Positions 3,147-27,554 of a DNA stretch of 64,000 bases are shown here, piece by piece (position 1 is the stretch's first letter; each line of letters opens with the position of its first letter). The stretch lies in assembly GCF_054482595.1 (NCBI RefSeq), contig NZ_CM137008.1; one strand, written 5' to 3'. Both the position numbers and the translations under genes were made by a program. Below the pieces are notes generated by a model. That model saw only the letters and a program-made list of their open reading frames with translations, was not told the DNA's origin and did not search any database.

Positions 3147-3222
3147 AATAAACCTCTTTTTCAGGCGAGAGCGCACCTCGCGTTAGCGCCTGATGGAGTG
3201 GGTTGAAATTAATTATTATTAA

Positions 3223-3974: not shown

Positions 3975-3998
3975 TTTATTCCTCTTAAAAAAGTGTAC

Positions 3999-4943: not shown

Positions 4944-7747
<2,804 letters not shown>

Positions 7748-10266: not shown

Positions 10267-10303
10267 GGTAACCCCAATGGATTAAAATAGATGGCGGAAA
10301 TAA

Positions 10304-10331
10304 GTATGACGATTTTAAGTATTCGTCATAC
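10304..10331. promoter_or_regulatory. NikR operator (GTATGA-N16-TCATAC) in the nikA promoter
   Basis: Exact dyad GTATGA (10304-10309) and TCATAC (10326-10331) with 16-bp spacer, 38 bp upstream of the nikA ATG; matches the established NikR operator. Confidence 0.85.
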
Positions 10332-10376
10332 TGATTACCTGTTCTGGATCAATAGATGGGCAGTCGGGTGGGCGGA

Positions 10377-10964: not shown

Positions 10965-10965
10965 A

Positions 10966-12195
10966 TCAGGGCCAACGTTTAATGATGATGGATGTATTAA
11001 TGCCGCCAAAGGCAAAGTTGTTACTCTGCAAAAACTCACAATCAACCTTGCGGGCTTCATGCATGATGTAATCCAGCGCGCCACAATTCGGGTCTGGTTT
11101 ATTCAGGTTTAGCGTAGGCGCAAACCAACCTTCGCGCATCATTTGCAGACTCATCCAGGCTTCGAGCGCGCCACAGGCACCAAGCGTATGACCAAAATAA
11201 CTTTTCAGCGAGGAGAGCGGCACATTATCACCGTAAATGGTTGCTGTCGCCAGACTTTCTGCCATATCACCGCGATCGGTCGCCGTACCATGCGCTGAAA
11301 TATAGCCGATATCTTGTGCGCTTAACCCGGCGATTTTCAGCGATTGCTCCATACAATACTGCATGGTTTCGCGCTGCGGCTGGGTAATATGTGCCGCGTC
11401 GCAGTTAGTCGCAAAGCCGACGATTTCACCGTAAATGGTCGCGCCGCGCGCTTTGGCGTGCTCCAGTTCTTCGAGAATGAGCGTACCTGCGCCTTCACCA
11501 ATCACCAGCCCGTCGCGGTTTTCATCGAACGGTGAAGGTGTGGTTTTCGGCGCATCATTGTGCTGGCTGGTGGCGAAAAGCGTATCAAATACCGCTGCTT
11601 CTGAAGGACATAACTCTTCGGCACCACCAGCAACCATCACCGTTTGATAACCGTGGCGAATGGCTTCCCACGCATAACCGATTGCCTGGCTGCCGGAAGT
11701 ACAGGCGCTGGAGGTTGGGATCACCCGCCCGCGCAGGCCGAAAAAGAGGCCAGTATTAACGGCGGTGGTGTGCGGCATCATCTGCACATAGGTGGTGCCA
11801 GTGATGTTATTGGTGTGCTTTTCCGTCAGCATGGTGGCGAACTCGCTTACCGGGCCGGTACTGCCGGTCGATGAACCGTACGCAATGCCCGTTTCGCCGC
11901 TGGTTAATATCGGATCGCCAATCAACCCTGCCTGCTCTAACGCCAGCTCGCTGGCACGGGTCGACATTTGCGACACGCGGCCCATCGCACGGATACGCTT
12001 GCGGGTGTAGTGCTCCGGTAGCGTGAAATCATCAACAGGCGCGCCAAGCAGGGTGTGCAGCCCGTCGTAGACCTGCCACTCCGGCATTTTGCGCACCGCA
12101 TTTTCATACGCCAGTAAGCGTGCAGAAACGTCCTGCCAGTTTTCACCAAAGGCAGTCACGCCACCCATTCCTGTAATCACTACGCGACGTGTCAT
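10966..12195 (-). CDS. apeR: Beta-ketoacyl-ACP synthase (APE cluster KS)
   Basis: 409-aa KAS I/II-like protein with active-site Cys context (PTSSACTSGS) and the His pair; the ape letter is assigned by position in the 18-gene order as I recall it. Confidence 0.85.
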   Translation of the reverse strand: MTRRVVITGMGGVTAFGENWQDVSARLLAYENAVRKMPEWQVYDGLHTLLGAPVDDFTLPEHYTRKRIRAMGRVSQMSTRASELALEQAGLIGDPILTSGETGIAYGSSTGSTGPVSEFATMLTEKHTNNITGTTYVQMMPHTTAVNTGLFFGLRGRVIPTSSACTSGSQAIGYAWEAIRHGYQTVMVAGGAEELCPSEAAVFDTLFATSQHNDAPKTTPSPFDENRDGLVIGEGAGTLILEELEHAKARGATIYGEIVGFATNCDAAHITQPQRETMQYCMEQSLKIAGLSAQDIGYISAHGTATDRGDMAESLATATIYGDNVPLSSLKSYFGHTLGACGALEAWMSLQMMREGWFAPTLNLNKPDPNCGALDYIMHEARKVDCEFLQSNNFAFGGINTSIIIKRWP

Positions 12196-12923
12196 AACAT
12201 CCCTCCGTTGATGGAAATAACCTGGCGGGTGACGTAACCCGCAATATCAGACATTAAATAACTGGCAAGCCCGGCAACTTCTTCCGCCTGGCCCATACGT
12301 TTCATGGGGATCATCGACATTGCCTCTTTCAGAGCGCTCTCTTCCATTTCGATCATCCCGGTATCAATAAGCCCTGGCGCGATGCAATTGACGGTGATTT
12401 TGCGCTTTGCGAGTTCGATAGCCAGCGCTTTTGTTGCGCCGATAATTCCGGCTTTGGCAGCGCTGTAATTCACCTGGCCGCGATTGCCCATTACGCCGGA
12501 AACCGAGGACAGCGTGATGATGCGCCCACCCTGGCGCGCGCCGATCATTGGCATAATGCACGGCTGAATGACGTTGTAGAAACTGTCGAGATTGGTGTGG
12601 ATCACCGCATCCCAGTCGTCATCGCTTAAAGCCGGAAAAGCGGCATCGCGGGCGATCCCGGCGTTACTGACCACGCCGTACCAGGCACCGTGTTGCGCGA
12701 TCTCATGCTCCAGCACTTCCCGACACTGTTCGCGGTTTGCGACGTCGAAACTGAGCAAACGCCCGTTACCCCCGTTGGCGACAATGGCATTCAGCGTTTC
12801 CTGAGCGCCTGTGGCGTCACGGTGATAGTGAACGCCAATGTTAAAGCCGTCTGCCGCCAGTTGGCAGGCGATGGCGCGACCAATGCCTTTGCTGGCACCA
12901 GTAACCAGAACTGAACGACTCAT
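12192..12923 (-). CDS. apeQ: 3-oxoacyl-ACP reductase (SDR family, FabG-like)
   Basis: Rossmann motif TGASKGIGRA and SDR catalytic YSAAK; 4-nt overlap with the neighbouring gene. Confidence 0.85.
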   Translation of the reverse strand: MSRSVLVTGASKGIGRAIACQLAADGFNIGVHYHRDATGAQETLNAIVANGGNGRLLSFDVANREQCREVLEHEIAQHGAWYGVVSNAGIARDAAFPALSDDDWDAVIHTNLDSFYNVIQPCIMPMIGARQGGRIITLSSVSGVMGNRGQVNYSAAKAGIIGATKALAIELAKRKITVNCIAPGLIDTGMIEMEESALKEAMSMIPMKRMGQAEEVAGLASYLMSDIAGYVTRQVISINGGML

Positions 12924-13387
12924 CAGGACGCTCCTTGTTGAAACAGGGTGGTAAGTTCTTCCGCGGTCGGCTGGAAGGTGTTAATGCGGCCCGTCGCCTC
13001 GCCGTCGTTGATGCTGCACTCAAAACTGCCGAAGCGATCGTCCTGCATCAGCAGTTTGACGGTAATGGTCAGCGTCTGGCCTGCGGGCAGAATGCCAGCG
13101 GCGCAAAGCAATTCACGCGCGCCCAGTATCATCCCTAACTCAATACTGTTTTTGCCCTGCTGGTGGCGATGCCAGCCAGACCAGACGCCGACGGTTTGCG
13201 CCATCAGTTCAAGGGCAAACCAGCCAGGGAGATTGCCGTCCGGGTCGAGAAACGGTGCCAGTACGCCACTGGGCGAAACCGTCACGCGGCACACCGCGCT
13301 GTCATCGCTGACGCTCACCACGTCTTCCAGCAGTAACATGGGCGCGTCGTGGGGCAGATAAGCGCCGGGGGATAAATAGTGGCTCAC
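12923..13387 (-). CDS. apeP: Hotdog-fold 3-hydroxyacyl-ACP dehydratase
   Basis: 154-aa hotdog-fold protein; partners with the second dehydratase (apeI) in APE clusters. Confidence 0.75.
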   Translation of the reverse strand: MSHYLSPGAYLPHDAPMLLLEDVVSVSDDSAVCRVTVSPSGVLAPFLDPDGNLPGWFALELMAQTVGVWSGWHRHQQGKNSIELGMILGARELLCAAGILPAGQTLTITVKLLMQDDRFGSFECSINDGEATGRINTFQPTAEELTTLFQQGAS

Positions 13388-14562
13388 GAAACCCTCCCGA
13401 GCAGAATGCTGGCGTTATTGCCGCCAAAGGCGAAGGAATTGGACAGGATCACCGGACGTGCCAGCGGCTGCGGTTTTTCGATAATGCCGCAGGGTGGCAG
13501 CGTGGGATCGCGTGGCGACAGGCTGAAATCTTGGGCGGGCAGCGGTAAATCACGCTGTAAGATCAACATACTGATTGCTGCTTCGGTAATGCCCGCCGCG
13601 CCCAGCGTGTGGCCGGTCAAATGTTTGGTGGAGCTGCACGGTACGCGTTCGCCAAACAGGGCGTTAACCACCATCGATTCAATCTGGTCGTTGAGTTGCG
13701 TGGCGGTGCCGTGCAGGTTGATATAGCCGACGTCATCTGGCGTAAGCTGCGCATCGGTCAGTGCCTGATTAATGGCGCGGATCGCCCCTTCGCCCTGCGG
13801 ATGCGGGGCCGAAATATGGTAAGCGTCACTCGATTCACCAACGCCCAGCAATGCGATGGGCTGCGGTTCGCGGGTTAATAACATCAGCCCCGCGCCTTCG
13901 CCAATGGTGATACCTGCGCGGTCACGACCGAACGGCTGACATAAAGTTGGCGAGAGCGATTCGAGGCTGTGAAAACCGTTAATCGGCATCCGGCTCAGGG
14001 TGTCTGCGCCACCCACAATGGCGGCATCGACCAGCCCCGTCTCGATAAGCCTGCGCCCGCTGATCATCGCTCTGGCGCTGGAGGAGCAGGCGGTTGAAAG
14101 GGTATAGGCCGGGCCGTCGAGCGCCAGCCAGTGGCTGAGAAAACGCGACGGATCGCCAAGTTCCTGTTGTGCGTAGTGCCATGTGGTGCTCGGCAGCCCG
14201 TGGGTGCGCAGGTTAACGTGCGTGTCGCCTTCATGCAGGCCGGAGGTGCTGGTGCCAAGTACAATCGCGATGCGCTCGCGACCATATTTCGCTATAGCGT
14301 CATCAACCTGCGGCTGGAGCTGCGCCAGCGCCGCCAGCAGGATCTGATTGTTGCGCGAGCGATGCGCAGCGAATTTTTCCGGGATAAGCGGAAGCTCGCC
14401 ATCCACGCCAGCCAGGACCGCCTGCGGATGCCCCTGCAACCAGCCTGCGCGTGGGCGCATTCCGGGGGCGACACCGCGAGCCAGGTTGGCTGCGATTTCG
14501 TCAAGATTATTTCCCAGGGCGTTGATCATGCCGACGGCGGAAATATAAATCATATCAGTCAC
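13384..14562 (-). CDS. apeO: Beta-ketoacyl-ACP synthase (APE cluster KS)
   Basis: 392-aa KS-family protein with conserved Cys (LSTACSSSARA) and C-terminal SNSFAFGGNNA. Confidence 0.85.
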   Translation of the reverse strand: MTDMIYISAVGMINALGNNLDEIAANLARGVAPGMRPRAGWLQGHPQAVLAGVDGELPLIPEKFAAHRSRNNQILLAALAQLQPQVDDAIAKYGRERIAIVLGTSTSGLHEGDTHVNLRTHGLPSTTWHYAQQELGDPSRFLSHWLALDGPAYTLSTACSSSARAMISGRRLIETGLVDAAIVGGADTLSRMPINGFHSLESLSPTLCQPFGRDRAGITIGEGAGLMLLTREPQPIALLGVGESSDAYHISAPHPQGEGAIRAINQALTDAQLTPDDVGYINLHGTATQLNDQIESMVVNALFGERVPCSSTKHLTGHTLGAAGITEAAISMLILQRDLPLPAQDFSLSPRDPTLPPCGIIEKPQPLARPVILSNSFAFGGNNASILLGRVS

Positions 14563-15139
14563 CTAAGTATTGAATGGTGATGTGGTATTTAAAGACATGC
14601 TGTTCAATGCTGATTGGCACGCGTTTGCCCTTGCGATTCAGATAGGTGATTTCCGTGACCAGCTTGCCGCTGGCGTTACGCAGCTCGCGTTTGTCACCGT
14701 TGTCGCGAAGTGTCCAGCCAGTGGGAAGTTGCGGTTGCCAGGCGCTAATCGGCCAGTGGCTGAGCATTACGTCAGCCAGCACCTGACTTGCGGGCGGCAA
14801 CTGTGGGACGACGATGGATTGCTCGGCGCGTAGCCCTTGCGCATCGTAGGTCAACAGAAACAGGCGAATGCCGACCGACGACAGCCCGGCAAGGGTGATT
14901 TTCTGGTCGTCGGCGTTAAGCATCACTAACAGCGACTGGGTTTTGCCGTTGAAGCTGCCGGTCAACAGTTGCTGGGAATTGACGGCGGGTGAAATCCCTG
15001 GTGCCGGCAGCGTGATGCGCGTGCCAGGTTGCAGCCACGCCTGCGGGCGGCCTTCCTGTTCCGGTTGCGAGTGGCTACAGCCGGTGAGGATAAGCGTAGC
15101 GGTCAGGGCGAGCGCTCGCCAGAATGTGGGTTTGATCAT
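14555..15139 (-). CDS. apeN: Lipoprotein, APE-cluster associated
   Basis: Signal peptide with lipobox LTGC; conserved position between the KS and MMPL genes. Confidence 0.7.
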   Translation of the reverse strand: MIKPTFWRALALTATLILTGCSHSQPEQEGRPQAWLQPGTRITLPAPGISPAVNSQQLLTGSFNGKTQSLLVMLNADDQKITLAGLSSVGIRLFLLTYDAQGLRAEQSIVVPQLPPASQVLADVMLSHWPISAWQPQLPTGWTLRDNGDKRELRNASGKLVTEITYLNRKGKRVPISIEQHVFKYHITIQYLGD

Positions 15140-17454
15140 TTTTTTGTTCTCTTTTTATCGGGCATCGCCAGCGGCGAAAGCAGGAAGGCGGTGAAAATAC
15201 CGCTCACCAGCACAATGCCAAAACTGCTGATGGCCTGGGTGGCGCTGAATACCAGCATTCCCAGCGTCAGCAAGGTGGTGAGCATTGCCAGCGTGATCGC
15301 CAGTAGCGAAGTTAATGGTGTACCGCGCGGATTACTGAAAAACAGCGTGTAGTTGATGCCGATGCCAAGCACCAGCACCAGCGCCAGCAGCGAAAAGAGA
15401 TTCACCGCCTGCCCGCTCATCGCCAGCACCGCCAGACCACAACCCAGCGAAAGCACCGAAGGTACAAGGCTGATAAGCCCTTTGCGCCAGCCGAGACGGG
15501 CCACTGCGCCGCAGGCAATCACCGCCAGCGCCACCAGCAACAAGCCGGTTAAGACATAACGGTAAAGCGCGAACAACTCATCAAAGGTGCTTTTGCGATC
15601 AACCCAGGCAATGCCGCAAGGGTAATATGTGGCGATTTCCTGCATCAACGCGCTACTTTTAACCCCTTCAACCGGCACCAGTACGCCGCTTTCGCCGTTT
15701 TCCAGCGTCAGCCACAGCAGACGCCAGCCTTCACTGGCGGGGCTTGCCAGCCATTCATCAACGTTCACTGGCATGGCGTTGAGATCCGGGTTCACTGCCG
15801 TCAGCCCGGCATTTTGCAGCGCTTTTGTTACTGTCGGGGCCGCCGTTTTCAGCAGTTGTAAATCTTCCTCCTGCCGCGCAAGGGAGTTCAGCGGAATGGT
15901 GCGGTAGTTGCTGATAAGCCCCTCTTTTTTCGCATACTCAAGTGAGGCGGTATATTTCTCCAGTCGCCGCAATGTTTGCTGTGGCGAATCGCCGTAAACC
16001 ACAAACCATTTTTGATCGACGCTTTGTCCGGTCAGGGCGGTAATGGCTTTCTCCTGGGTCAGAATATGCTGCGGCAGCGCCTGTAACTGCGAGATATCGT
16101 CATCGACGCGCAGCATTGACATCCCCGCCAGCGAAAACAGCGCCAGCGCGACGGGCAGACCCAGCGACAGTTTTTTATTGCGCCGCCACGCTGCCAGCCA
16201 GCGCAGCATCAGCGCCATCGCCGGAACCGGACGCACCGGCAGGCCACGGCACAGCCACGGATGCCAGAACAGGACGGTCAGACAGGAGGCGCTCAACCCG
16301 ACGGCGGCAAAAATCGCCATCTGGCGAATGCCGGGGAAGGGGGCGAGCATCATAATCAGATATGCCGCCACGGTGGTGAGCAGCGCCAGCAGCAGGGCAT
16401 TGCGTACTTTCGCCAGGCTTTGCCACGGCGAAACGTCGTTGCCGTGCACCATCCGCTCGGTGAGATAATAGAGCGTGTAGTCAGCGGAAATGCCGATAAC
16501 GCTCATGCTCATCACCAGCGTCATCAGGTGTAATTCACCGAAAATCAATAAAGTGGCGACCGTTCCCGCCAGCGCGCCGATGCCGATGGAAATCACGCAA
16601 AGCAGCAACGGGCGCAAAGAGCGGAACACCGCCACAATCAGCAATATCACCCCCAGCAGCGTTGCCACGCCCAGGGTTGAGATATCCTGCTTCGCCTGTT
16701 GGCTGGCGTAATCGCTGTAAAACACCGTGCCGCGCGAAAGCAGCTGCGCCTGCGGGTAACGCGTTTTCAGATCCTTTTCCAGCGTATTCAGGGTCGTGAT
16801 GAGCTGGTGGGTTTGCTGCATATCAAACGACGATCCCGCCAGTTCACCGTGCAGCAGATACCAGTAGTTGCCCTGGGGATCCTGCGTCACCAGCCAGCCG
16901 TCCATCAGCCGCAAACGCTGGCCGTTTTTCGCCATCGCCAGCTGCGAGCCGCGCATTAACATCAGCGGATCGTTTTGCAGCTCCTTGCCGCTTACCCCGG
17001 AGAACGCAGAATAAAGCTGGGAGAGGATCCACTGCGCCTGCGCTTCGCCGCCGTTTTGCAGGCGCGCGCGGGTGTCGGGGTCAATCAGGCCGTTGCGGTG
17101 CTGCCAGAAAAACGCTCCCCACGCTTGCTGGCTGGCGGCATCCATTGGCCCTTTAACGTCGCCGAGCGCAGCGGATTTTTGCAGCAGCGTCAGCCACTCC
17201 TGAGCGACCCTGGGATTAGCCTCTTTACCGGGGCTGACCAGCCACACCAGTTGGCGGTCCAGACGCTGCATAAAGCCGTCATTCAGCGCTGGGGGAATAT
17301 CGCCCATAGCCTGTTTGGGTAACATAGCCAGCACGCTACTGTTCAGCCGTGATTGCGGCAGCAGGATCAGCAACGCCGCCGCCATGACCAGGCAGACTAG
17401 CCCCCATAACAGCGCGGGGCGTTTACTGGGCGGCAAAACGTTGGCGTTCGTCAT
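15136..17454 (-). CDS. apeM: MMPL/RND-family membrane exporter
   Basis: 772-aa protein with two hydrophobic bundles separated by periplasmic domains, typical of MMPL transporters. Confidence 0.8.
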   Translation of the reverse strand: MTNANVLPPSKRPALLWGLVCLVMAAALLILLPQSRLNSSVLAMLPKQAMGDIPPALNDGFMQRLDRQLVWLVSPGKEANPRVAQEWLTLLQKSAALGDVKGPMDAASQQAWGAFFWQHRNGLIDPDTRARLQNGGEAQAQWILSQLYSAFSGVSGKELQNDPLMLMRGSQLAMAKNGQRLRLMDGWLVTQDPQGNYWYLLHGELAGSSFDMQQTHQLITTLNTLEKDLKTRYPQAQLLSRGTVFYSDYASQQAKQDISTLGVATLLGVILLIVAVFRSLRPLLLCVISIGIGALAGTVATLLIFGELHLMTLVMSMSVIGISADYTLYYLTERMVHGNDVSPWQSLAKVRNALLLALLTTVAAYLIMMLAPFPGIRQMAIFAAVGLSASCLTVLFWHPWLCRGLPVRPVPAMALMLRWLAAWRRNKKLSLGLPVALALFSLAGMSMLRVDDDISQLQALPQHILTQEKAITALTGQSVDQKWFVVYGDSPQQTLRRLEKYTASLEYAKKEGLISNYRTIPLNSLARQEEDLQLLKTAAPTVTKALQNAGLTAVNPDLNAMPVNVDEWLASPASEGWRLLWLTLENGESGVLVPVEGVKSSALMQEIATYYPCGIAWVDRKSTFDELFALYRYVLTGLLLVALAVIACGAVARLGWRKGLISLVPSVLSLGCGLAVLAMSGQAVNLFSLLALVLVLGIGINYTLFFSNPRGTPLTSLLAITLAMLTTLLTLGMLVFSATQAISSFGIVLVSGIFTAFLLSPLAMPDKKRTKK

Positions 17455-18028
17455 CGGTCAGTTGCGCTGGCGTCAGTTGATGTTGGGTAAGAGCAATATC
17501 GGTGCGATCGCCCTGTTTATCATTAAGTTGAATGCTCTCCAGATAGGTTTTCCCGGCGAGATCGATGGTGTTGAAAATTTTATCCAGCGGCGTGGTGGTC
17601 GGCGTCAGGCGCAGCGTCCAGCGGCCTTCGCCTTTGTCAGCAAATTCGACGCGGAAGTTTTGTTCCAGCACTTTGCGATCGGCCTGGAACAGCGCGCGCA
17701 GCAGGTGGTTAAACTGGAACATCTGCGGGTTGTTTTCTGCCGTGATGATTTGCGGCGGCTGACCGTTGATCACCTGCACCATGCGTTTATCATCCAGCAA
17801 TAGCTGCATGGGGAACGGTGAGGTTTGATCCCACAATAACCCCTGGTCGCGGGCGATCAACATCTGACCCTGAGATCGCAGCGGCTGCGGCAGATCTTTA
17901 ATCGTCCGGGTTTGATCAAAATGGGCGCGGATCACCGGTTGTTCGGTAAAGCGTTGCTGAAGATCGTCCAGGGTCAGGGCGCTCACAAACGGGCTAATCA
18001 GCAGCGCCAGCAGCGGTAAAAATTTCAT
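17423..18028 (-). CDS. apeL: LolA-like outer-membrane lipoprotein carrier
   Basis: 201-aa secreted protein with signal peptide (MKFLPLLALLISPFVSA) and LolA-fold-like length/composition. Confidence 0.7.
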   Translation of the reverse strand: MKFLPLLALLISPFVSALTLDDLQQRFTEQPVIRAHFDQTRTIKDLPQPLRSQGQMLIARDQGLLWDQTSPFPMQLLLDDKRMVQVINGQPPQIITAENNPQMFQFNHLLRALFQADRKVLEQNFRVEFADKGEGRWTLRLTPTTTPLDKIFNTIDLAGKTYLESIQLNDKQGDRTDIALTQHQLTPAQLTDDERQRFAAQ

Positions 18029-18447
18029 GGTTTGACTCCCATGCGTTCAAACAGAATATCGGGGCTGACAAAGCACAGTTCGCGACTTTGCTCGTCGACC
18101 GCGACCTGAATGGTGTATCCGGTGGTGGCGCGTTTGCCCGTTTCGGCATCGAAAATCTGATAGCCAATCCGCAGACGGTTTTCGAACTCTTCGATATGCG
18201 CACGCACGCGGATGCGTTGCTCAAAGGTGAGGGCGTGGCGATATTTCACCCGCGCATCGACCACTGGCCACAAATAACCGGACTCTTTCATCTGCCGATA
18301 GCCGTAATTGAACTGGTTGAGCAGCGCCTCGCGGGCCACTTCAAAGTAGCGAAAATAGTTACCGTGCCAGGCCACGCCCATCATATCGACGTCGTGAAAG
18401 GGAATGGTCAGCTCGACTTCAGCGGTAAATCGGGGATCGTTAAGCAC
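18025..18447 (-). CDS. apeK: Hotdog-fold acyl thioesterase (4HBT-like)
   Basis: 140-aa protein resembling the YbgC/4-hydroxybenzoyl-CoA thioesterase family. Confidence 0.75.
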   Translation of the reverse strand: MLNDPRFTAEVELTIPFHDVDMMGVAWHGNYFRYFEVAREALLNQFNYGYRQMKESGYLWPVVDARVKYRHALTFEQRIRVRAHIEEFENRLRIGYQIFDAETGKRATTGYTIQVAVDEQSRELCFVSPDILFERMGVKP

Positions 18448-18450
18448 CCT

Positions 18451-20127
18451 TTACTCCTTGTCCTGAATTTCCGGCAGTTGCCAGAAATCGAAAAAATTAA
18501 ACCAGTCGAGGGGCGACTGGAGCGCGTAATGTTCCAGACGCGCGGCGTAGTGGTCGATAGCGTTTTGCAGCGCCTGCTGGCGTTCGCCACGCGGCAGTTG
18601 CAGCGGGTCGGCAAAGCTTTCGCAGTGAATATGCAGCTTGCCGTGCTGGCGTAGGGCGAAAATCAGATTCACTGGGCAGCGCAAAATAGAGGCGAGAATA
18701 AACGGCCCCTGTGGGAAGGGCGCAGGCTGGCCCATAAACGGACTCCAGCAGACGCGCCAGTCGCCGCCGCGTTGCGGGGTGACGGCGATGCGGTCACCGA
18801 CAATCGCCACCCATTCGCCGTTATCCAGCTTCTCTTTCAGCAGGATGGCGGTTTCTGGGCCGATATCTGTTACCGGCATCAGGTTAATGCCTGCCTGAGG
18901 AGCCATCTCCTGCATTATCTGTTTAAAGCGTTGGGCGTTTTCGCTAAACACCAGCGCGTTAATGGTTTTGTAGCCCTGAATTTTTGCCAGCGCCCGGCAC
19001 ACTTCCACATCGCCAAGATGCGAGGCCAGCAGCAATTTGCCGCGCGGATCGCGGACGTCAAGCGCCGCTTCTGCGCCTGGCGCAAACAGCACATCACGCC
19101 CCAGTTGTAGCTCGCCGCGCCAGCTGGCGATTTTGTCGAGCATGGCATTACCGAAACGTAGAAAGTGCTGATAGCTGTTGAGTTTTGCCGCCTGTGGTTG
19201 ATGCTGTCGTACACGGGCGAGCCAGTCTTGCGACGCTTTGCGCGCACGAGAAGCAGTGAGCCAGTAGACGCCCACCACCGGGTAAAGCAGCGCGCTAAAC
19301 GCCGTTCTTCCCAGCAGACGCCAGACCAGCAGCATCAGGCGCATTCCCCATAATCCTTTCACTTCACTCTGCCGCGCCCAGTGGCTGGAAGAGCGGCGCA
19401 TCAGCAGTGAAGGAATACGCGGTAACATGCCGAAAAATAGACGCGTGTGCATGAGCGAGATGCGGACGTTATCTTTCAGGGCATCAAAATGCGAAAGCCC
19501 GTCCAGTGGATAGGTGACGCGGGTCGGCACGAAATAGCTGGTGTTTCCCTGCCAGTAGAGGCGCACCATCACTTCAGTGTCGAAATCCATCCGCTTGCCG
19601 ATGGTGGCGTGTTTTGCCAGTTGCAGCGTTGGCGCAACCGGATAAACGCGAAAGCCGCACATGCTGTCTTTCAGTTGCAGGGAGAGCGTTTCGATCCATA
19701 CCCAGACGTGGGTGACCCAGCGCCCGTAAAGCCGTGAGCGGGGGATGGAGTCATCGTAAATTGGCTGGCCGGAGATCAGCGCCGCAGGGTGTTGTTCAGC
19801 GACTGCCAGCAGTTTGGGGATATCTTCAATCGCATGTTGACCGTCAGCATCCACCTGCACTGCATGGCTGAACCCTGCGTCTGCCGCTGCCTGTAAGCCA
19901 CGCATCACTGCCGCGCCTTTACCTGCGTTTTCTGCTAAGCGAATTAAGGTCACGCCAGGCTGTTCGCTAACCAGATTATCCAGTTGCTGTTGCGTGGCGG
20001 CATCGCTGCCGTCGTCCACCACAATACAGGGGAGATTAAATGGCTTAAGACGCGCCAGCACGCCCGGCATCATCGCGCCGTGGTTATAGCAGGGGATCAA
20101 CACGCAGGGAGAAAAGTTTACCGACAT
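18451..20127 (-). CDS. apeJ: Fusion of family-2 glycosyltransferase and LpxL/HtrB-like lipid acyltransferase
   Basis: N-terminus has the GT2 signature (IPCYN...VVDDGSD); C-terminal half resembles lauroyl/myristoyl lipid A acyltransferases. Confidence 0.75.
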   Translation of the reverse strand: MSVNFSPCVLIPCYNHGAMMPGVLARLKPFNLPCIVVDDGSDAATQQQLDNLVSEQPGVTLIRLAENAGKGAAVMRGLQAAADAGFSHAVQVDADGQHAIEDIPKLLAVAEQHPAALISGQPIYDDSIPRSRLYGRWVTHVWVWIETLSLQLKDSMCGFRVYPVAPTLQLAKHATIGKRMDFDTEVMVRLYWQGNTSYFVPTRVTYPLDGLSHFDALKDNVRISLMHTRLFFGMLPRIPSLLMRRSSSHWARQSEVKGLWGMRLMLLVWRLLGRTAFSALLYPVVGVYWLTASRARKASQDWLARVRQHQPQAAKLNSYQHFLRFGNAMLDKIASWRGELQLGRDVLFAPGAEAALDVRDPRGKLLLASHLGDVEVCRALAKIQGYKTINALVFSENAQRFKQIMQEMAPQAGINLMPVTDIGPETAILLKEKLDNGEWVAIVGDRIAVTPQRGGDWRVCWSPFMGQPAPFPQGPFILASILRCPVNLIFALRQHGKLHIHCESFADPLQLPRGERQQALQNAIDHYAARLEHYALQSPLDWFNFFDFWQLPEIQDKE

Positions 20128-20471
20128 AGGCGGATCTTCCCGCTACTGGCGGTGTGGCGGGCGTCACCGTCGTGACGCTGATAGCTAAAGCTCAGAATCT
20201 GGCGTTCTTCCTGCCAGTTAAGCGCGAGCGTGACGCGGTTTTCCGGCAGCAACGGAGACTGGAATTTTATGTTCTGAATGGAGTGAAAACGCCAGCCAGG
20301 CGCGAGCAGATTGAGCGCGTAGCTCATCGCCCAGTCGATTTGCGCAACTCCTGGGAGTAATGGTTGCACGGCAAAATGACCGCGAAACCAGAACAGATCC
20401 GCCCTGAGATGCAGAACAATTTCAAGGTGATTCGTTTGTGCCTGATGGCGCTCGATTTCATGGGGCTTCAT
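20118..20471 (-). CDS. apeI: Hotdog-fold dehydratase (FabA/FabZ-like)
   Basis: FabZ-like core (FRGHFAVQPLLPGV); start placed at ATG 20471 (MKPHEIERH) with AGGAG 7 nt upstream; the ORF track begins at a GTG 30 nt further upstream. Confidence 0.75.
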   Translation of the reverse strand: MKPHEIERHQAQTNHLEIVLHLRADLFWFRGHFAVQPLLPGVAQIDWAMSYALNLLAPGWRFHSIQNIKFQSPLLPENRVTLALNWQEERQILSFSYQRHDGDARHTASSGKIRLCR

Positions 20472-21819
20472 GAAATAACTCCTGTAATTGCGCATAGACA
20501 CGCTTGTTCATACTGTTTACTGGCATTTCATCAATAACGCGCCAGTAACGCGGAATAGCAACTGGCTCCAGCGTCGGGCGCAGTAAACGCCGCCAGGTCA
20601 TTTCCTGGCTATGCCCGCCGCCGTTCTGCCATTGCAGATGAGCTTCGTCATCCAGCACCAGCAAAACGCCTATGCTCTGACGCCCGCCGCGCGTAACGGG
20701 AACTGCCGCCGCCTCGCGAATGCCGTCCAGCGCCAGTAGACGTTGTTCTACTTCCTGGAGTGAAATACGTTTTTCTTCAATCTTAACGATGCGCCCACGA
20801 CGCCCCATCAGATGGAACTGACCATCTTCGCTAAGCTGTAAGATATCGTCGAGTAACAGGCCGTTATCTTCCGCTATCAGCGGTGAAAAGAGGCGAAAGG
20901 CATCGCCTTCGGCTTGGAACTGCATACCTGGGAGGGGTAGCCAGCGGCGTTGCTCTTGTTCGCGGTAACGCCAGGCGATGACGCCGGTTTCCGTGCTGCC
21001 GTAGATTTCATCAGGCCAGACGCGCAGCCAGCTTGCGGTGTGTTGTACATCCTGCCACGGCAGCTCACCGCCAGCAGAGAGAAGCACCTGAACGGGTGGC
21101 GGAGAAAGCTGGGTATCCAGGCGCTTCAAAAATGCCGGGCTGCTGATGAAGATATAGCGATGCTGATGACTCAACGCGGCAAACTGTTCGACATACCAGA
21201 GCATGGCGGCGTGCAGCGGTAATCCCAACGCCATGGGCAGGAAAACACGAAAAGTCAGGCCGTACAAATGCTGCGGCAATACGGAACCGACGACACGACA
21301 ACCCGCCAGACGTGCGCCTAATCGTTCAGCCAGCAGTTCTGCTTCACGATCCAGCAAATGAACAGGTTTAATCACCCGTTTCGGCTGTCCCGTGGAACCG
21401 GAGGTAAACAGCTCGATAAAAGCCTCTGGCGCTATAGCGGCAAAGGTGAAGGATTGTGTCGCGACTTGTGGGGAACTTGCTACCAACAGCCATGAACCTT
21501 GCCAGTTAAGTTCGCTGTCGCTAAGCACACCATCGAACAGTTCACGTTGCTCGTTAAGCTGGATGACACGGTTATGCCCCGGAAGCACCGGTGTTTTTCC
21601 GGCGTGTAGCGTGGCGAGCAGGGCAACGATAAACAGATAGCTGTTCTCAAAGCACAGCGCCCAGCGTTCACCCGGCTGTTGCTGCAAGCGGCAGATAAGT
21701 TGCGCGACATCGTGACGCAAATCGCCCAGCGTCCAGGTGCTTTCGTCCAGCCACGCAATGGGCGTGTCATCAGGGCGTGGCGCAGTCAGCCAGCGTGCAA
21801 GCGGTAAGGTCTGCTTCAT
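20458..21819 (-). CDS. apeH: AMP-dependent acyl/aryl-ACP ligase (adenylating starter-unit enzyme)
   Basis: ANL-superfamily motifs (TSGSTGQPK, YGSTETG); start placed at ATG 21819 forming an ATGA overlap with the upstream gene. Confidence 0.8.
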   Translation of the reverse strand: MKQTLPLARWLTAPRPDDTPIAWLDESTWTLGDLRHDVAQLICRLQQQPGERWALCFENSYLFIVALLATLHAGKTPVLPGHNRVIQLNEQRELFDGVLSDSELNWQGSWLLVASSPQVATQSFTFAAIAPEAFIELFTSGSTGQPKRVIKPVHLLDREAELLAERLGARLAGCRVVGSVLPQHLYGLTFRVFLPMALGLPLHAAMLWYVEQFAALSHQHRYIFISSPAFLKRLDTQLSPPPVQVLLSAGGELPWQDVQHTASWLRVWPDEIYGSTETGVIAWRYREQEQRRWLPLPGMQFQAEGDAFRLFSPLIAEDNGLLLDDILQLSEDGQFHLMGRRGRIVKIEEKRISLQEVEQRLLALDGIREAAAVPVTRGGRQSIGVLLVLDDEAHLQWQNGGGHSQEMTWRRLLRPTLEPVAIPRYWRVIDEMPVNSMNKRVYAQLQELFHEAP

Positions 21820-22397
21820 GCGCGATCTCTTTTCATCACCTGACGGCGCACCAGCCATTCACCAGCCATTAATGTTCCCATCAACAAATAAGCAATCATG
21901 CCGTTCCAGGCGGTCCATAACGACATATCGGCATAAAGCGCGGTAAAGAGGGCAATTCCACCGTTAATGATGAAAAAGCCGCACCAGATTTGCGTGACGT
22001 GGCGGGTATAGCGCACGCCCTTTTCCGGGAGGTCTGGCTCCTGCAACCGCGCCAGCCGCTCAACTATCGGCATTGCCGACCACAGCGAACCGCCAAAAAC
22101 CGCCAGCATGACCGCGTTAACCACTACCGGGTAAAACAGCAGTAGCTGGTGCGTTTTCAACATAAAGCTGGCGACACATAATGCGATGCCCACGACAGCG
22201 ACGAGTTGCGTGACGGCTTGTAAAGGCCCCGCCTGGCGACGGGTCTGGCGCAGACGCAACAAAAGCAGCAACGCCATTAGCGGTAACAGCCAGTGCAGGC
22301 CGTTATGCGCTAAGCCAAACCAAATCACAAACGGCCAGGCGAGCAGCAATAATCCAGTCAGCAGCTTAATCATCGGTAGCGAGCGAATGCCCGACAT
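21816..22397 (-). CDS. apeG: Integral membrane protein, APE-cluster associated
   Basis: 193-aa hydrophobic protein with several predicted TM helices; conserved position. Confidence 0.6.
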   Translation of the reverse strand: MSGIRSLPMIKLLTGLLLLAWPFVIWFGLAHNGLHWLLPLMALLLLLRLRQTRRQAGPLQAVTQLVAVVGIALCVASFMLKTHQLLLFYPVVVNAVMLAVFGGSLWSAMPIVERLARLQEPDLPEKGVRYTRHVTQIWCGFFIINGGIALFTALYADMSLWTAWNGMIAYLLMGTLMAGEWLVRRQVMKRDRA

Positions 22398-22401
22398 CAG
22401 A

Positions 22402-22653
22402 TCAGGCTTCTTGTAGCAGGCGTTCTACAGCCTCGACGACATCCTGGACTGTACGCACGGCTTTAAACTCTTCCGGCTTGATTTTCTTACCGGTTTTCTT
22501 TTGCAGGTGCACAATCATGTCAACGGCGTCGATGCTGTCCAGTTCCAGATCTTCGTACAGGCGCGCTTCAGGTTTGATGTCCTGCGGATCGATTTCAAAC
22601 AGCTTAACCAGCAGGGCTGAGACTTCCTGATAGACGGTTTGTTGTTCTGTCAT
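22402..22653 (-). CDS. apeF: Acyl carrier protein
   Basis: 83-aa acidic protein with phosphopantetheine attachment motif LELDSIDAVDM. Confidence 0.85.
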   Translation of the reverse strand: MTEQQTVYQEVSALLVKLFEIDPQDIKPEARLYEDLELDSIDAVDMIVHLQKKTGKKIKPEEFKAVRTVQDVVEAVERLLQEA

Positions 22654-22664
22654 GATGGCTTTCC

Positions 22665-22922
22665 TCAGGCACGTTGCGCAGCAATGAAAGAGGCCAGAGT
22701 GGCGACGGAGAAAAAGTGCTGACGCATCTCTTCGCTTTCCGCAGAGAGCACGATGCCGTACTCATTTTTTACTGCCAGTCCCAGTTCCAGGGCATCGATA
22801 GAGTCCAGCCCTAAACCGTCGCCAAACAGCGGCGCGTCGGTATCGATATCATCAGGCGTCAACTCGTCCAGATTGAGGGTGCTGATGATGAGGTTTTTAA
22901 TTTCCAGATAAAGCGCTTGCAT
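22665..22922 (-). CDS. apeE: Acyl carrier protein
   Basis: 85-aa protein with attachment motif LGLDSIDALEL; tandem with a second ACP. Confidence 0.85.
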   Translation of the reverse strand: MQALYLEIKNLIISTLNLDELTPDDIDTDAPLFGDGLGLDSIDALELGLAVKNEYGIVLSAESEEMRQHFFSVATLASFIAAQRA

Positions 22923-23736
22923 TATTTATTCCTGAGAGAGGTAAACAACCTTGTTGTAATTGAAGCAAAAGATGCCGGTTTAACTGCCTTGCTGCCAGCG
23001 CCGGTTCTTGTGAAGTTGCATCGTAAAATTTATTGATTTCAACCCGACCATGGACTGCAACCGTAAAAAACGGCCGGTCAGGTGGAACGTCATACCATTT
23101 ACTTTGTTTATCCAGCAGATGCTCGCTACAGCCGATCGTCACGATGCGTAAATCGCTGGCACAGCGCACGGCAATATTCGCCGCCCCGCGCTGCAGCGTC
23201 ATTTTTTCACCGGGCTTCGTTCGCGTGCCTTCGGGGAAAATCAGGATAGTGTCACCCTGTGCCAGTCGCTGTTGGCAGCGGGGTAACAGGGTTTCAGCTT
23301 CGCTGTTGATTAAATAATCTGCCGCCCGCACGACGCCGCCAAGAAAAGGATTTTTTAACAGCGCGCTTTTCACCAGGCAGTCAGTTTCTGGCATGACTGA
23401 CGCCAGCAGCACGTAATCGATCAGCGTGGGATGATTGGCTACGACGAGGCAACCGCGTTCCTGACGTAAAATTTCAGCGCCATCAATACGATAATCCAGC
23501 ACGCCAAGCCCTTTCGCGACAGTTAAAAACAGGCGAAAACTGGCGGCAATGCTGCGACGCGCCAAACGACGGCGGCGGGAAGTATCCCACACCAAAACTA
23601 ACAATATGTTAAACCACACGACAGAAAGCAGCAGGCCGCCGAGACCAAACAGGGCAAAACATAACCCGGTCATGACCAGTCGCCAGGTCCACTCCAGACG
23701 TGACAGCAGCTTACTCATCCACGGCTCCAGCGCCAC
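22897..23736 (-). CDS. apeD: Lysophospholipid (PlsC-like) acyltransferase
   Basis: N-terminal TM segment followed by an acyltransferase core with the HPTLIDY and FPEGTR motif pair. Confidence 0.75.
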   Translation of the reverse strand: MALEPWMSKLLSRLEWTWRLVMTGLCFALFGLGGLLLSVVWFNILLVLVWDTSRRRRLARRSIAASFRLFLTVAKGLGVLDYRIDGAEILRQERGCLVVANHPTLIDYVLLASVMPETDCLVKSALLKNPFLGGVVRAADYLINSEAETLLPRCQQRLAQGDTILIFPEGTRTKPGEKMTLQRGAANIAVRCASDLRIVTIGCSEHLLDKQSKWYDVPPDRPFFTVAVHGRVEINKFYDATSQEPALAARQLNRHLLLQLQQGCLPLSGINNASALSGN

Positions 23737-24437
23737 TGTACGCGCTCGCCAGGCAGTGAAAATGTGTCCGCATTTTGTAAATAGTGCTGTAAAAACAACA
23801 TGCTTTGCGGCAGTGTTGTTTCATTACCCGCAATGGCTGACTGCGTTTCACATTGCCACTCATCGCCAGCTTCAATCACCAGCGCGACGGCGTACGGCCA
23901 GGTCGGCATTTCTGCGGGCAGTTGTGGATGATAGAACTCAGGCAGAAAGCCATCAAAATCGACCATCAGCACGCGCTGGTATCCCGCTTGTAACAGGCTA
24001 AGCACTTCACACAAACCTTGCTGGAAAGTGTCGCGACCAGCAGAAAGCGATGACGAAACGATCGGCTGTTTGGCCGCAATGGTCAGGTTACCCACGGAAG
24101 AGTTGTGTACTGAAAGTGCAAAGTCGGTCGGAGAAAGCGCCTGTTCGGTTGCCAGTGCATGAACAATGCGGTAATTGCGCTCCAGTTCGCCATGACGACT
24201 GGTATACAAAACGGCGTCTGGCTGATGGCGGCGTAGCATTGCCAGACCGCATTCAACAGCCAGTTTGCTGCCTGAACTGAGGCGGCGGGCGGTCATCATT
24301 GGCAGTTCACTTAATTTTGCCAACGGCGCGGCAGGGTCAATCGCCCACGGCTGGCGCGACCATGCTTGCCATTGCTGCGCTTCGCTAAGTCCAGGCGCCA
24401 GTGCCTGCCAGTCGGTAATATTTAATGTAAATTTCAT
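23715..24437 (-). CDS. apeC: Ketosynthase-like chain-length-factor protein (no intact KS catalytic triad seen)
   Basis: 240-aa KS-related protein lacking an obvious active-site Cys context; start placed at ATG 24437 (MKFTLNI). Confidence 0.65.
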   Translation of the reverse strand: MKFTLNITDWQALAPGLSEAQQWQAWSRQPWAIDPAAPLAKLSELPMMTARRLSSGSKLAVECGLAMLRRHQPDAVLYTSRHGELERNYRIVHALATEQALSPTDFALSVHNSSVGNLTIAAKQPIVSSSLSAGRDTFQQGLCEVLSLLQAGYQRVLMVDFDGFLPEFYHPQLPAEMPTWPYAVALVIEAGDEWQCETQSAIAGNETTLPQSMLFLQHYLQNADTFSLPGERVQWRWSRG

Positions 24438-24477
24438 CAACGCGCGCCCGCGGTAAACCAAAATTATTAAGTGACGA

Positions 24478-25545
24478 TTATTTCTTTTGGCATATCAAAA
24501 GTGTATGCCCAACGCCTAAATTATCGTGGCGCTCTGCTACCTGGAATCCTGCTTTATTCAGATAGTCGTAAAATTTCTCTGCACTATAGAAACGGCTGTT
24601 ACCGTTTGCCATGCAGGTAAAATAAAGTGAGGACGCGTTCAGGCTAAATGATGCTGCTTCAAACCGCTGCGCATCCCAGAACAACTCCATGATGCAAACT
24701 TTTGCGCCAGGCTTCATTACGCTGGCAATTTTGCTGAGTATGCTAATTATTTGTTCGGGTGAAAAACAGTCTAAAAATTGGCTCATCCACCAGATATCAG
24801 CCTCGCCCGGTAATGGGGCATCGCTTAGCATATCCACCGCATGGAAATCTATGCGATCAGAAAAACCTGCATTCGCGATATTTTCTTTCGCTAGTACGAT
24901 TTGTTGTGGCAGATCTAATAACGTCACGGCGATGTTTTCATTGTATTTGCAGCAACGCAAAGCCCACTTACCCGTATTGCCGCCTACATCGTACAATGTT
25001 GTGGGGTTGTTGGCGAATACATAAGGCAGTGCGGCGTTAAATGCGCCATCTGAATAGTAATGATCAAACGCAAACCAGCTTTCACGAGCGGCGTCTGGTA
25101 ATTGCGAAAGTGCCGGATATATCGTCGACCAGTCGCCAAATACTTTTAACCCGGAAGGTTTTCCTTCATTGAGTGAATCGGCGAGGAAGAAGAGCCCCTG
25201 GTAACAGACATCCTGGGTGAAATCCATATTCACGCGAGTCATAGTGTCATGCAGGAGGTAATGACCGATTTTCGCCAGGTAATAAATTCCCTCTTTACAG
25301 GTAATAATTCGCCCGCTTAAGCCCATATCTAACAGAACGCTGGCAGCATATTCGTTGATATGGCTATGTTCGGTGATATCAGCCAGCGTTGCGCCATGTT
25401 TGCCTTGCCGATCCAGATATGAAAGTACACCCGCATTACGTAGGCAGAGTGCTGTTTGAAAAAGCATAGGGGCAAAGGCAATGCGTTGAGCTTCGGTAAT
25501 CGCATCCAGTGCGCTAAGAGAATCCTGTTCGTACATGTTGGGCAC
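24478..25545 (-). CDS. apeB: SAM-dependent methyltransferase (O-methyltransferase-like)
   Basis: Class I methyltransferase fold (VGGNTGKWA...LLDLP); an alternative ATG start lies at 25536. Confidence 0.75.
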   Translation of the reverse strand: MPNMYEQDSLSALDAITEAQRIAFAPMLFQTALCLRNAGVLSYLDRQGKHGATLADITEHSHINEYAASVLLDMGLSGRIITCKEGIYYLAKIGHYLLHDTMTRVNMDFTQDVCYQGLFFLADSLNEGKPSGLKVFGDWSTIYPALSQLPDAARESWFAFDHYYSDGAFNAALPYVFANNPTTLYDVGGNTGKWALRCCKYNENIAVTLLDLPQQIVLAKENIANAGFSDRIDFHAVDMLSDAPLPGEADIWWMSQFLDCFSPEQIISILSKIASVMKPGAKVCIMELFWDAQRFEAASFSLNASSLYFTCMANGNSRFYSAEKFYDYLNKAGFQVAERHDNLGVGHTLLICQKK

Positions 25546-25604
25546 AACCTGTTAAGAGGGAATTAAATTATTATCGGACCGCAACGGCCCGACTTTAGGA
25601 AGAA

Positions 25605-25994
25605 TTATAAATCTGCGCCCGCTGACAAATTCAGTTGAATATCTTTGTCGAGATTGCGGACCCAGCGATTGTAGTTTTTATGAATTTGTCCGCCTGACGC
25701 TTGTAGGTTCTGGCTATTTTCATAATTGATATCGTAGCTGGATGCCGTGTAGTTAATGCGTATTTCCGCTGAATGATCGCGTGACTGTTGACGTGCTTTA
25801 ATTATGCCTTGTCCGGCTTCGGACATAATCCATTTGCGTTCAACGCCAGCTTTCAGAATCGCTTTTTTCACTTGTTCCTGGGTATGACCAGCGCTGACGG
25901 TTGAGTGAACCTGATCAATTGGCGCAGTACGCGCGCAACCTGCTAAAGCACCCACAACAGCAATAGCCGCAAACCATTTCATGTAATGTCTCAT
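25605..25994 (-). CDS. apeA: Lipoprotein, first gene of the APE operon
   Basis: Signal peptide with lipobox LAGC; an alternative start (MKWFAAI) lies at 25982; followed upstream by a 380-bp AT-rich promoter region. Confidence 0.6.
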   Translation of the reverse strand: MRHYMKWFAAIAVVGALAGCARTAPIDQVHSTVSAGHTQEQVKKAILKAGVERKWIMSEAGQGIIKARQQSRDHSAEIRINYTASSYDINYENSQNLQASGGQIHKNYNRWVRNLDKDIQLNLSAGADL

Positions 25995-26323
25995 TAGAAC
26001 CCCATTAAAGTATTGTTTTTACGAGTAAAGCAAGATTTAACTGTAATTGCTGGCATCACTATTCTTTATTTAGAGAAAAAATTACTTGTGAGATAAGTCA
26101 GTAAGTGCACATCAGAGTAAAAATCTCTGAAATGACTAAATTACTGCCAGCAGGGACCAACTATAAGTGAGTGAGAAAAATGAGGCAATAAAAATAACAC
26201 AATGTTATCAGTGCATTCTTTGAGAAGGATTTAATCGCTATTCGGCGTTTATATATATTTGACTTAAGGAATGGTTTTTTTAAATTAATTTTCTGAATAA
26301 TGTTTCATCATTTCCTCAAATCA

Positions 26324-26354
26324 AATGGCCACTGTTAGATAAACGGTGGCCATT
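26324..26354 (-). terminator. Candidate terminator hairpin downstream of yhhT
   Basis: Inverted repeat AATGGCCAC-N12-GTGGCCATT 20 nt past the yhhT stop; T-rich tract is weak. Confidence 0.4.
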
Positions 26355-26373
26355 GCCTGCTCAGGAGGTGCTA

Positions 26374-27423: not shown

Positions 27424-27554
27424 TGGGGCTTCCTTGTGACTTTTTGTATTAAGTGTAGCGGGAGTCACGCCAGCAATATTCTGATTCTTACTGCTGATTT
27501 TCACGTCAGCACGTGGTAAAAATGAAACACTGTTGTAAAAATGTGGTGATCCTC

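Follow-up and report, generated by a model that had tools for sequence, protein, structure and literature searches.

Eighteen co-directional open reading frames (ORFs), all on the minus strand and without internal stops, span positions 10966–25994 of the 64,000-nt stretch of DNA analyzed here (contig NZ_CM137008.1 of assembly GCF_054482595.1; hereafter, the window), and constitute, from apeA to apeR, a biosynthetic gene cluster (BGC) of the aryl polyene (APE) family. The genes have been named by their order, after the clusters of Xenorhabdus and of Escherichia coli CFT073. The 15,029-bp ape island is free of frameshifts, and the window matches the genome of E. coli THO-010 (NZ_AP022540.1), a non-O157 human isolate, at 100% identity; the RefSeq annotation of the latter has the same 18 coding sequences (CDS). 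The initial annotation of this region had described a complete 18-gene operon, and this description stands: 18 intact ORFs run from 25994 (or 25982) down to 10966, with strong homology to known Ape proteins and intact active-site residues. Moreover, each of the functions it had assigned to the individual genes is verified by family models, matches to solved structures, and motifs.

The limits of the region, retained from the initial annotation, are set by the stop codon of apeR and by the most upstream start available to apeA. In RefSeq, seven ape genes have shorter N-termini, and apeA starts at 25982 rather than 25994, that is, 12 nt further in. For apeC, RefSeq places the start at 24437, and the long ORF starts at 24461; the alignment with the structure 6QSP_B begins at residue 9 of the long ORF, which favours the shorter RefSeq start. 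With RefSeq starts, the distances between adjacent genes from apeC–apeD to apeQ–apeR are –4, –26, +11, +4, –4, –14, –10, +3, –4, –32, –4, +1, –4, –1, and –4 nt, and the only wider gaps are those between apeA and apeB (68 nt) and between apeB and apeC (40 nt), so that the 17 internal junctions range from –32 to +68 nt. The majority of them are overlaps, six being of the classic 4-nt ATGA type. The genes apeA–apeR form a translationally coupled operon.

The enzymes expected to build the polyene are all represented (Table 1). The elongating ketosynthase ApeO matches ApeO of Xenorhabdus doucetiae (6QSP_A) with the E-value of 4e-174, exceeds the cut-off of the NF006618 model (555 bits against 407), and has the motifs TACSS, HGTAT, and GHTLGAAG. 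ApeC aligns with 6QSP_B along its full length (1.2e-92) and is named “beta-ketoacyl synthase chain length factor” in RefSeq; the motif check found no ketosynthase Cys/His/His motifs in it, and these two proteins are predicted to form an ApeO:ApeC heterodimer of a ketosynthase and a chain-length factor. The second ketosynthase, ApeR, matches ApeR of Acinetobacter baumannii (7F27, 5e-158) and 4EWG (1e-164), scoring 778 bits with NF006587 (cut-off 470), and the reductase ApeQ scores 476 bits with TIGR01831 (cut-off 339) and matches 4IIU (1e-154) and 7CZC (1e-115). Both dehydratase subunits are recognized by their own Pfam families and by the respective chains of one structure: ApeI-like (8e-40) and 6QSR_A (7e-39) for ApeI, ApeP-like (9.4e-41) and 6QSR_B (1.9e-47) for ApeP. 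The window ApeI is called “3-hydroxyacyl-ACP dehydratase FabZ family protein” by RefSeq/PGAP, and the CFT073-type allele, “ApeI family dehydratase”; this inconsistency arises because the window allele is divergent, while still matching the ApeI-like family. The adenylating enzyme ApeH has the motifs TSGSTGQPK, YGSTE, and NSMNK, and the C-terminal lysine is present. ApeB matches the FlxJ-family methyltransferase model at 2e-142, and its role is taken from the desmethyl products of the Xenorhabdus apeB deletion.

Table 1. Features of the ape region and its immediate surroundings in the window.
Feature	Position	Strand	Description
acpT	10377..10964	–	4'-phosphopantetheinyl transferase; NF007676 396 bits, above cut-off
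apeR	10966..12195	–	second, homodimer-type ketosynthase; Cys/His/His triad
apeQ	12192..12923	–	FabG2-type 3-ketoacyl-ACP reductase (ACP, acyl carrier protein); YSAAK motif
apeP	12923..13387	–	hotdog dehydratase subunit, ApeI partner
apeO	13384..14553	–	elongating ketosynthase, 389 aa; Cys156, His281, His315
apeN	14555..15139	–	DUF3261 lipoprotein (RefSeq), lipobox LTGC; LolB-like acceptor role proposed in literature
apeM	15136..17454	–	MMPL/RND-superfamily exporter; HAE3, HpnN, MMPL matches; orthologues match Pfam MMPL
apeL	17423..18028	–	LolA-like periplasmic carrier, signal peptide; TIGR00547 1.6e-16, LolA2_flexi 8.7e-15
apeK	18025..18447	–	4HBT/YbgC-type thioesterase; TIGR00051 1.3e-16
apeJ	18451..20127	–	GT2 glycosyltransferase (residues 8–131 and beyond) fused to predicted PatA/LpxM-type acyltransferase (residues ~243–558)
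apeI	20118..20471	–	hotdog dehydratase subunit
apeH	20458..21819	–	adenylating enzyme for aryl starter (by analogy, probably 4-hydroxybenzoate); AMP-binding domain
apeG	21816..22397	–	polytopic membrane protein, COG4648 family; 3' part within divergent cassette
apeF	22402..22653	–	second acyl carrier protein, DSID serine; NF003757 2.7e-43, above cut-off
apeE	22665..22922	–	acyl carrier protein, DSID serine; NF006617 4e-26, above cut-off
apeD	22897..23718	–	LPLAT/PlsC-type acyltransferase, HPTLID (HX4D) motif; TIGR00530 3e-15
apeC	23715..24437	–	truncated ketosynthase-like chain-length factor, predicted ApeO partner, 240 aa
apeB	24478..25536	–	S-adenosylmethionine-dependent O/C-methyltransferase, by analogy acting on the aryl head group; DVGGNTG motif
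apeA	25605..25994	–	small lipoprotein, lipobox LAGC; 125 aa (from 25982) or 129 aa (from 25994)
Upstream intergenic region	25983..26373	–	391 nt, 33% GC; presumed promoter/regulatory region
Divergent recombination cassette	20150..22050		apeI 5' end, apeH, apeG 3' end; ~65% nucleotide identity to CFT073 type vs 93–100% elsewhere
Second divergent block	25300..25994		apeB 5' end and apeA; 63–77% nucleotide identity to CFT073 type

Assignment of these enzymes to the housekeeping type II fatty acid synthase (FAS) was considered and rejected, as the FabF model yields 353 bits for ApeR and 209 bits for ApeO, below its cut-off of 494, and FabZ models yield 21–25 bits, below 113–155. The Ape enzymes are best regarded, judging by these scores, as paralogues of FAS and not FAS itself.

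Candidate export components have been identified as well, with families of the ApeM, ApeL, and ApeN type also seen by Pfam in the orthologous clusters of Klebsiella variicola (L005), Citrobacter youngae, and a third enterobacterial genome (L007). ApeD orthologues in L005–L007 match Pfam Acyltransferase. No Pfam or NCBIfam family was found for ApeA, and none matches ApeG, although some RefSeq records refer to the latter as “COG4648 family protein.”

The initial annotation also proposed that one of the two acyltransferases is fused to a glycosyltransferase. This is ApeJ, with the GT2 domain recognized by Pfam (3.7e-20, residues 8–131) and carrying the motifs DDGS and DAD, and with a C-terminal half (residues 243–558) for which searches with the single sequence return nothing from Pfam or from PDB. 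Still, 3,056 relatives of this half are found in a protein library clustered at 50% identity, many of them standalone proteins of approximately 310 aa. In an alignment of 71 sequences of this family, invariant H128, G130, D203, and R204 correspond to ApeJ H370, G372, D445, and R446, and H370-x4-E375 and D445-R446 are the predicted catalytic residues. The profile built from this alignment matches LpxM (5KN7) at 7e-7 and PatA more weakly, pairing SHLGxxE with the catalytic HFGTWE motif of LpxM, and 61 of the 71 homologues match Pfam Lip_A_acyltrans. The AlphaFold2 model of the C-terminal domain has high scores (predicted local distance difference test 90.9, predicted TM-score 0.90), and the sole significant PDB neighbours of this model in Foldseek are PatA and LpxM (E ~1e-11, probability 1.0). 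Hence the fusion is confirmed, with the C-terminal half of ApeJ modelled as an acyltransferase of the PatA/LpxM type.

Compared to mycobacterial PatA and Gram-negative LpxM and LpxL, the C-terminal domain of ApeJ has the same fold and the same catalytic H-x4-E dyad, but it is only ~15–18% identical to them, is fused to GT2, and presumably uses the APE chain on ApeE as the acyl donor, not acyl-CoA or acyl-AcpP. PatA acylates the 6-OH of a mannose linked to lipid, that is, of a sugar on a glycerophospholipid, while in the aryl polyene lipids (APELs) of Xenorhabdus the APE chain is joined via the oxymethylene (C-6) of N-acetylgalactosamine (GalNAc) in a GalNAc-phosphate-glycerol backbone, a step credited to ApeJ. 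The analogy with PatA fits this chemistry, as the sugar position acylated by PatA would be of the same kind.

The features defining the APE family are observed throughout the cluster. The core set of APE BGCs was formulated as apeO/R, apeE/F, apeC, apeI/P, apeQ, and apeM (Grammbitter et al.), and here we find the ApeO triad, truncated ApeC, ApeR, two carrier proteins, ApeI with ApeP, ApeQ, and ApeM with ApeL and ApeN. The match in gene content and order, claimed by the initial annotation, holds, since the cluster is collinear with the CFT073-type cluster and with those of Klebsiella, Citrobacter, and L007, and the matches of ApeO, ApeC, ApeI, ApeP, ApeR, and ApeQ listed above establish the homology to characterized Ape proteins.

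Several known systems serve as references. The ape cluster of X. doucetiae (ApeA–R), for which in vitro reconstitution and the APEL structure are available, agrees with the window cluster in gene set and nomenclature, but its proteins are clearly more diverged from those of the window than the ones of E. coli, Klebsiella, or Citrobacter. The full lipid has been solved in Xenorhabdus as an APE-GalNAc-phosphoglycerol lipid, and its APE moiety is identical to the hydrolysis product from E. coli CFT073 (Grammbitter et al.). Johnston et al. (2021) bear out the statement that the final product in E. coli is defined only in part, the full structure being that from Xenorhabdus. The CFT073 cluster of E. 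coli, called APE_Ec (c1186–c1204; MIBiG BGC0000836; also present in Nissle 1917 and ATCC 25922), was genetically dissected (Johnston et al., 2021), and roles of ape genes in pigmentation, protection from reactive oxygen species, and biofilm formation have been reported (PMC8253772, PMC12871727). Its 18 genes and their order are those of the window cluster, but it occupies another chromosomal site, near garD and hemagglutinin pseudogenes, and without adjacent acpT. Finally, the flexirubin and xanthomonadin clusters of Bacteroidota and Xanthomonas are related aryl-polyene type II polyketide synthase systems, and ApeB, ApeQ, and ApeL match FlxJ, FlxB, and LolA2_flexi. Membership in the flexirubin (Flx/Dar) family was rejected, as all these scores are under the equivalog cut-offs (474 against 560 for ApeB, and 266 against 340 and 55 against 125 bits for the others); moreover, no DarA/DarB dialkylresorcinol genes were found in the cluster, the DarB model giving 22 bits against the cut-off of 550.

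The gene acpT begins 1 nt past the apeR stop codon. In K. variicola, C. youngae, and L007 the same 18 genes are likewise followed, with a 1-nt gap, by a gene of the ACPS family encoding a protein of 192–195 aa that is 60–82% identical to AcpT, although the three clusters reside in three different chromosomal contexts. As this spacing recurs in other genera and contexts, acpT should be counted as a functionally built-in nineteenth gene of the cluster, activating ApeE and ApeF, rather than as its flank. This agrees with the in vitro activation of the O157 homologues of ApeE/F by AcpT, cited by Johnston et al. (2021). At the CFT073-type locus homology stops exactly at the apeR stop codon and acpT is not there, and therefore that cluster must depend on the orphaned acpT located at another chromosomal site.

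The position of the neighbouring yhhT relative to the cluster differs between genera, as in K. variicola (L005 4161–20925) the order is yhhS, apeA..apeR acpT, yhhT, while in both E. coli and Citrobacter apeA is preceded by yhhT. In L007, apeB is not called and a 626-nt gap (5062–5688) is observed in its place, the best tblastn identity to the window ApeB in this locus being 42%; the methyltransferase may have been lost here, and the product would then be a desmethyl APE.

The interior of the island is present in 841 of 5,426 complete E. coli genomes (~15%) and never on plasmids. In approximately 587 genomes the best match is at least 95% identical, these including many O157:H7, O55:H7, and O145 genomes with ~98% identity over the full length, and in approximately 254 the match is 90–95% identical and split into two pieces. 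In the remaining 85% of genomes only the flanks are found, yhhT adjoining acpT. The reported absence of the island from K-12 is correct, as yhhT (b3474) and acpT (b3475) of MG1655 are 54 bp apart. The proposed correspondence to O-island 138 also holds: many genomes of O157:H7 carry the island as a single uninterrupted match, 98.1% identical along all 15,029 bp, with yhhT and acpT as flanks. Indeed, the O-island 138 (Z4850–Z4868; Sakai ECs_4324–4341, S-loop 225) resides at the same yhhT–acpT locus, and its sole difference is the sequence divergence of ~2%. Genes Z4851–Z4861 have been listed as O-island 138, with some of its genes annotated as acyltransferase and ACP (PMC2907692), and ECs_4324–4341 of Sakai were identified as the APE cluster BGC0000836 by antiSMASH (PMC9205054). 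Hence, the ape locus of the window has already been annotated and published, and is an intact copy of a known cluster, not a new one.

The island-free state appears to be derived. One sampled E. coli genome lacking the island retains, upstream of acpT, window positions 10966–10984, corresponding to the last ~19 nt of apeR, and in Citrobacter the cluster is found in the same yhhT/nik neighbourhood as in E. coli. From these two observations we infer that the ancestral state was the cluster together with acpT, and that island-free strains such as K-12 probably arose by deletion of apeA–R, leaving acpT orphaned. In the island-free locus (L003 2486–2523), 38 bp (GAAAATGAAAGTGCGTATCGTATCACTTGTCGCCTCAT) are present in place of window 10985–26377; a search for these 38 bp in the window, allowing for up to 9 substitutions, gave no match, and hence the deletion junction is not a simple excision.

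Two further features of the window may be mentioned here. Region 1–4745, downstream of nikR, encodes a GntR regulator, galactitol-type phosphotransferase system components IIA/IIB/IIC, an FGGY kinase, and an HPr-like protein; K-12 carries rhsB there, making this a second variable region. An annotated gene of a tetratricopeptide-repeat protein is situated at 46698–47444, between livF and ugpB.

Base composition of the island has been described as more GC-rich than the flanks, which is true only for one of them: the island has a GC content of 55.5%, the adjoining 5 kb toward yhhT 51.0%, and the 5 kb toward nik (nik operon) 57.3%, the value for the whole window being 53.0%. Inside the island it increases from 46% in apeA and apeB to 60% in apeO and apeP. 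A foreign origin deduced from high GC content was rejected, since the nik flank is equally GC-rich and the cluster is apparently ancestral at this site, as the synteny with Citrobacter indicates.

Upstream of apeA, a predicted hairpin follows yhhT at approximately 26324–26354, and the only intergenic sigma70-like site, a putative promoter, is at 26188->26160. The consensus scans for promoters and terminators gave counts within the range expected by chance from shuffled sequences (17 against 12.4 ± 3.7 and 29 against 21.7 ± 5.2, respectively), no internal terminator of the ape operon could be assigned from the consensus scan, and the Rfam scan of 9500–28000 revealed no riboswitch or leader, with one chance snoRNA match (E 0.9). 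As for published expression data, the CFT073 ape BGC has no dedicated regulator and is modestly induced under chronic oxidative stress; its genes are induced at 37°C, and Ape proteins have been detected. In the rpoS mutant of EDL933, seven O-island 138 genes are expressed 2–6-fold higher.

The cluster is a mosaic relative to the CFT073 type, represented here by the locus L002 from ATCC 25922; we take it as such since all 12 published CFT073 ape primers match L002 exactly. Fourteen of the 18 proteins are 94–100% identical between the window and L002 (ApeK, 100%), while the remaining four are ApeA (65%), ApeH (66%), ApeI (72%), and ApeG (82%). In the DNA this divergence is confined to the ~1.9-kb apeI'-apeH-apeG' cassette and to the apeB 5' end with apeA, with only ~65% nucleotide identity to APE_Ec (the two divergent blocks in Table 1). 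The ratio of nonsynonymous to synonymous substitution rates (dN/dS) between the window and the CFT073 type is 0.01–0.31 over the cluster, with 0.08–0.20 for the divergent alleles and 0.08 for apeH. The synonymous rate is saturated in apeH (dS ~3), equals 0 in apeK and apeL, and is 0.09–0.15 in the genes around the latter two.

The ~1-kb segment 17500–18500, covering apeK, apeL, and the apeJ 3' end, is 100% identical between the yhhT–acpT and CFT073 types. This points to a recent event of gene conversion or exchange involving both E. coli ape loci, which are unlinked. Across the 5,426 genomes the cassette alleles form two discrete groups, with 567 genomes of the window type, approximately 260 of the CFT073 type, and no intermediates, and the two alleles are as far apart as, or further than, the orthologues of the same proteins in E. 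coli and Klebsiella. We read the mosaic, from these comparisons, as a probable old recombinational replacement between orthologous clusters, followed by gene conversion between the two ape loci of E. coli. In our literature search, no published description of the apeG-H-I/apeA mosaic was found.

Both allele sets appear functional. Among the ApeH positions conserved in at least 90% of 118 homologues, 198 of 214 are retained by both alleles, the few deviations being mostly conservative, and among the core proteins it is ApeH that generally evolves fastest when genera are compared (66–74% identity). A candidate interpretation of the divergent ApeH as a sign of a new substrate found no support, given that conserved positions and motifs are kept and dN/dS is 0.08.

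The surroundings of the CFT073-type cluster differ from those described above. In L002, at 1–4000 and 19500–22758, pseudogenes flank the cluster (garD, DeoR, and fragments of tagatose-bisphosphate aldolase and of ShlB/hemagglutinin), which is consistent with a decayed pathogenicity-island context.

Taken together, the region is almost certainly the yhhT–acpT (O-island 138) version of the enterobacterial APE cluster, intact and probably functional, with acpT as the built-in nineteenth gene. The following scheme combines the protein identities from this analysis with chemistry derived from the studies of Xenorhabdus and CFT073. AcpT would phosphopantetheinylate the carrier proteins ApeE and ApeF, and ApeH would adenylate an aryl acid, which in the studied systems is 4-hydroxybenzoate from UbiC, and load it on ApeE. 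The chain would then be extended with malonyl units by ApeO:ApeC and ApeR, each beta-keto group being reduced by ApeQ and dehydrated by ApeI:ApeP to yield a conjugated polyene, with ApeB methylating the ring and ApeK serving as the thioesterase. On the lipid side, ApeD is expected to acylate a lysophospholipid, the GT2 domain of ApeJ would add a hexosamine to the phosphoglycerol head group, and the PatA/LpxM-like domain of the same protein would then esterify this sugar with the APE chain. ApeM, ApeG, ApeL, ApeN, and ApeA may carry the resulting pigment-lipid to the outer membrane, where it would quench reactive oxygen species and promote biofilm formation.

Several points weigh against this interpretation. 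Production of the yellow APE pigment or APE lipid, together with all of the product chemistry, is documented for the clusters of CFT073, Vibrio, and Xenorhabdus and not for the yhhT–acpT type, and since four proteins, ApeH, ApeI, ApeG, and ApeA, are only 65–82% identical to those of CFT073, the strict equivalence of products is presumed from sequence. The export roles of ApeA, ApeG, ApeL, and ApeN are literature proposals. No promoter or regulator could be assigned, as promoter-like sites are not enriched and the Rfam scan found no elements in the region scanned. Finally, according to the literature, laboratory expression of ape clusters is often weak, and the Xenorhabdus cluster is silent, requiring an inserted promoter.

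The first of these points is the basis for an alternative, that is, a cluster of the same family with a different product, in which the swapped apeG-apeH-apeI genes and the apeA/apeB 5' end change the starter, the pairing with ACP, or the methylation. The contrast of the four divergent proteins with the other fourteen, the saturated dS of apeH, the existence of two discrete alleles at least as distant as orthologues from E. coli and Klebsiella, and the gap in the published chemistry would all be expected in this case. On the contrary, both ApeH alleles retain most of the conserved positions, all adenylation motifs are intact, the dN/dS value of apeH fits ordinary orthologues, and the rapid evolution of ApeH is seen across genera anyway; moreover, Xenorhabdus, being more diverged in ApeO, ApeC, ApeI, and ApeP than CFT073, still makes an APE moiety identical to that of CFT073. 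We consider a different product very improbable. A cryptic or decaying island, with genes intact but effectively silent in this strain and having no current physiological role, is scarcely credible: the upstream region of 33% GC is typical of targets of xenogeneic silencing, the BGC contains no regulator of its own, the cluster of Xenorhabdus stays silent under laboratory conditions, and 85% of E. coli genomes have no cluster, with a deletion scar in the sampled one, but 15 kb without a single frameshift, purifying selection on every gene, measurable and RpoS-modulated signals of O-island 138 genes in O157, and the induction of CFT073 ape at 37°C and by chronic oxidative stress, with proteins detected, argue against it.

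The preferred reading of the locus, an intact yhhT–acpT version of the enterobacterial APE cluster, adds no new biology by itself, as this locus has been annotated and discussed in the literature. Modest additions of this study are acpT as the nineteenth gene, the fold-level support for the sugar-acylating domain of ApeJ, the deletion scar, and the apeG-H-I/apeA mosaic. The latter has a practical consequence: the published CFT073 quantitative PCR primers for apeH and apeB do not match the window cluster, and, given this mismatch together with the difference in the starter-enzyme region, conclusions and primers from CFT073 are not automatically transferable to O157-type clusters.

Few bacterial BGCs are as widespread as the APE clusters, which in pathogenic E. 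coli have been linked to protection from oxidative stress and to the formation of biofilms, and the commoner cluster type of E. coli, found in 567 complete genomes including those of O157:H7, is not the experimentally studied CFT073 type. It is conceivable, though in our opinion unlikely, that the two ancient apeG-apeH-apeI (and apeA) allele sets, which segregate with the two ape loci of E. coli, are modules of different function and might differ in the aryl starter, in the pairing of ACP and dehydratase, or in a transport or surface-exposed component subject to diversifying selection. In that case, the widespread O157/yhhT–acpT cluster would make or handle a product other than the reference APE of CFT073.

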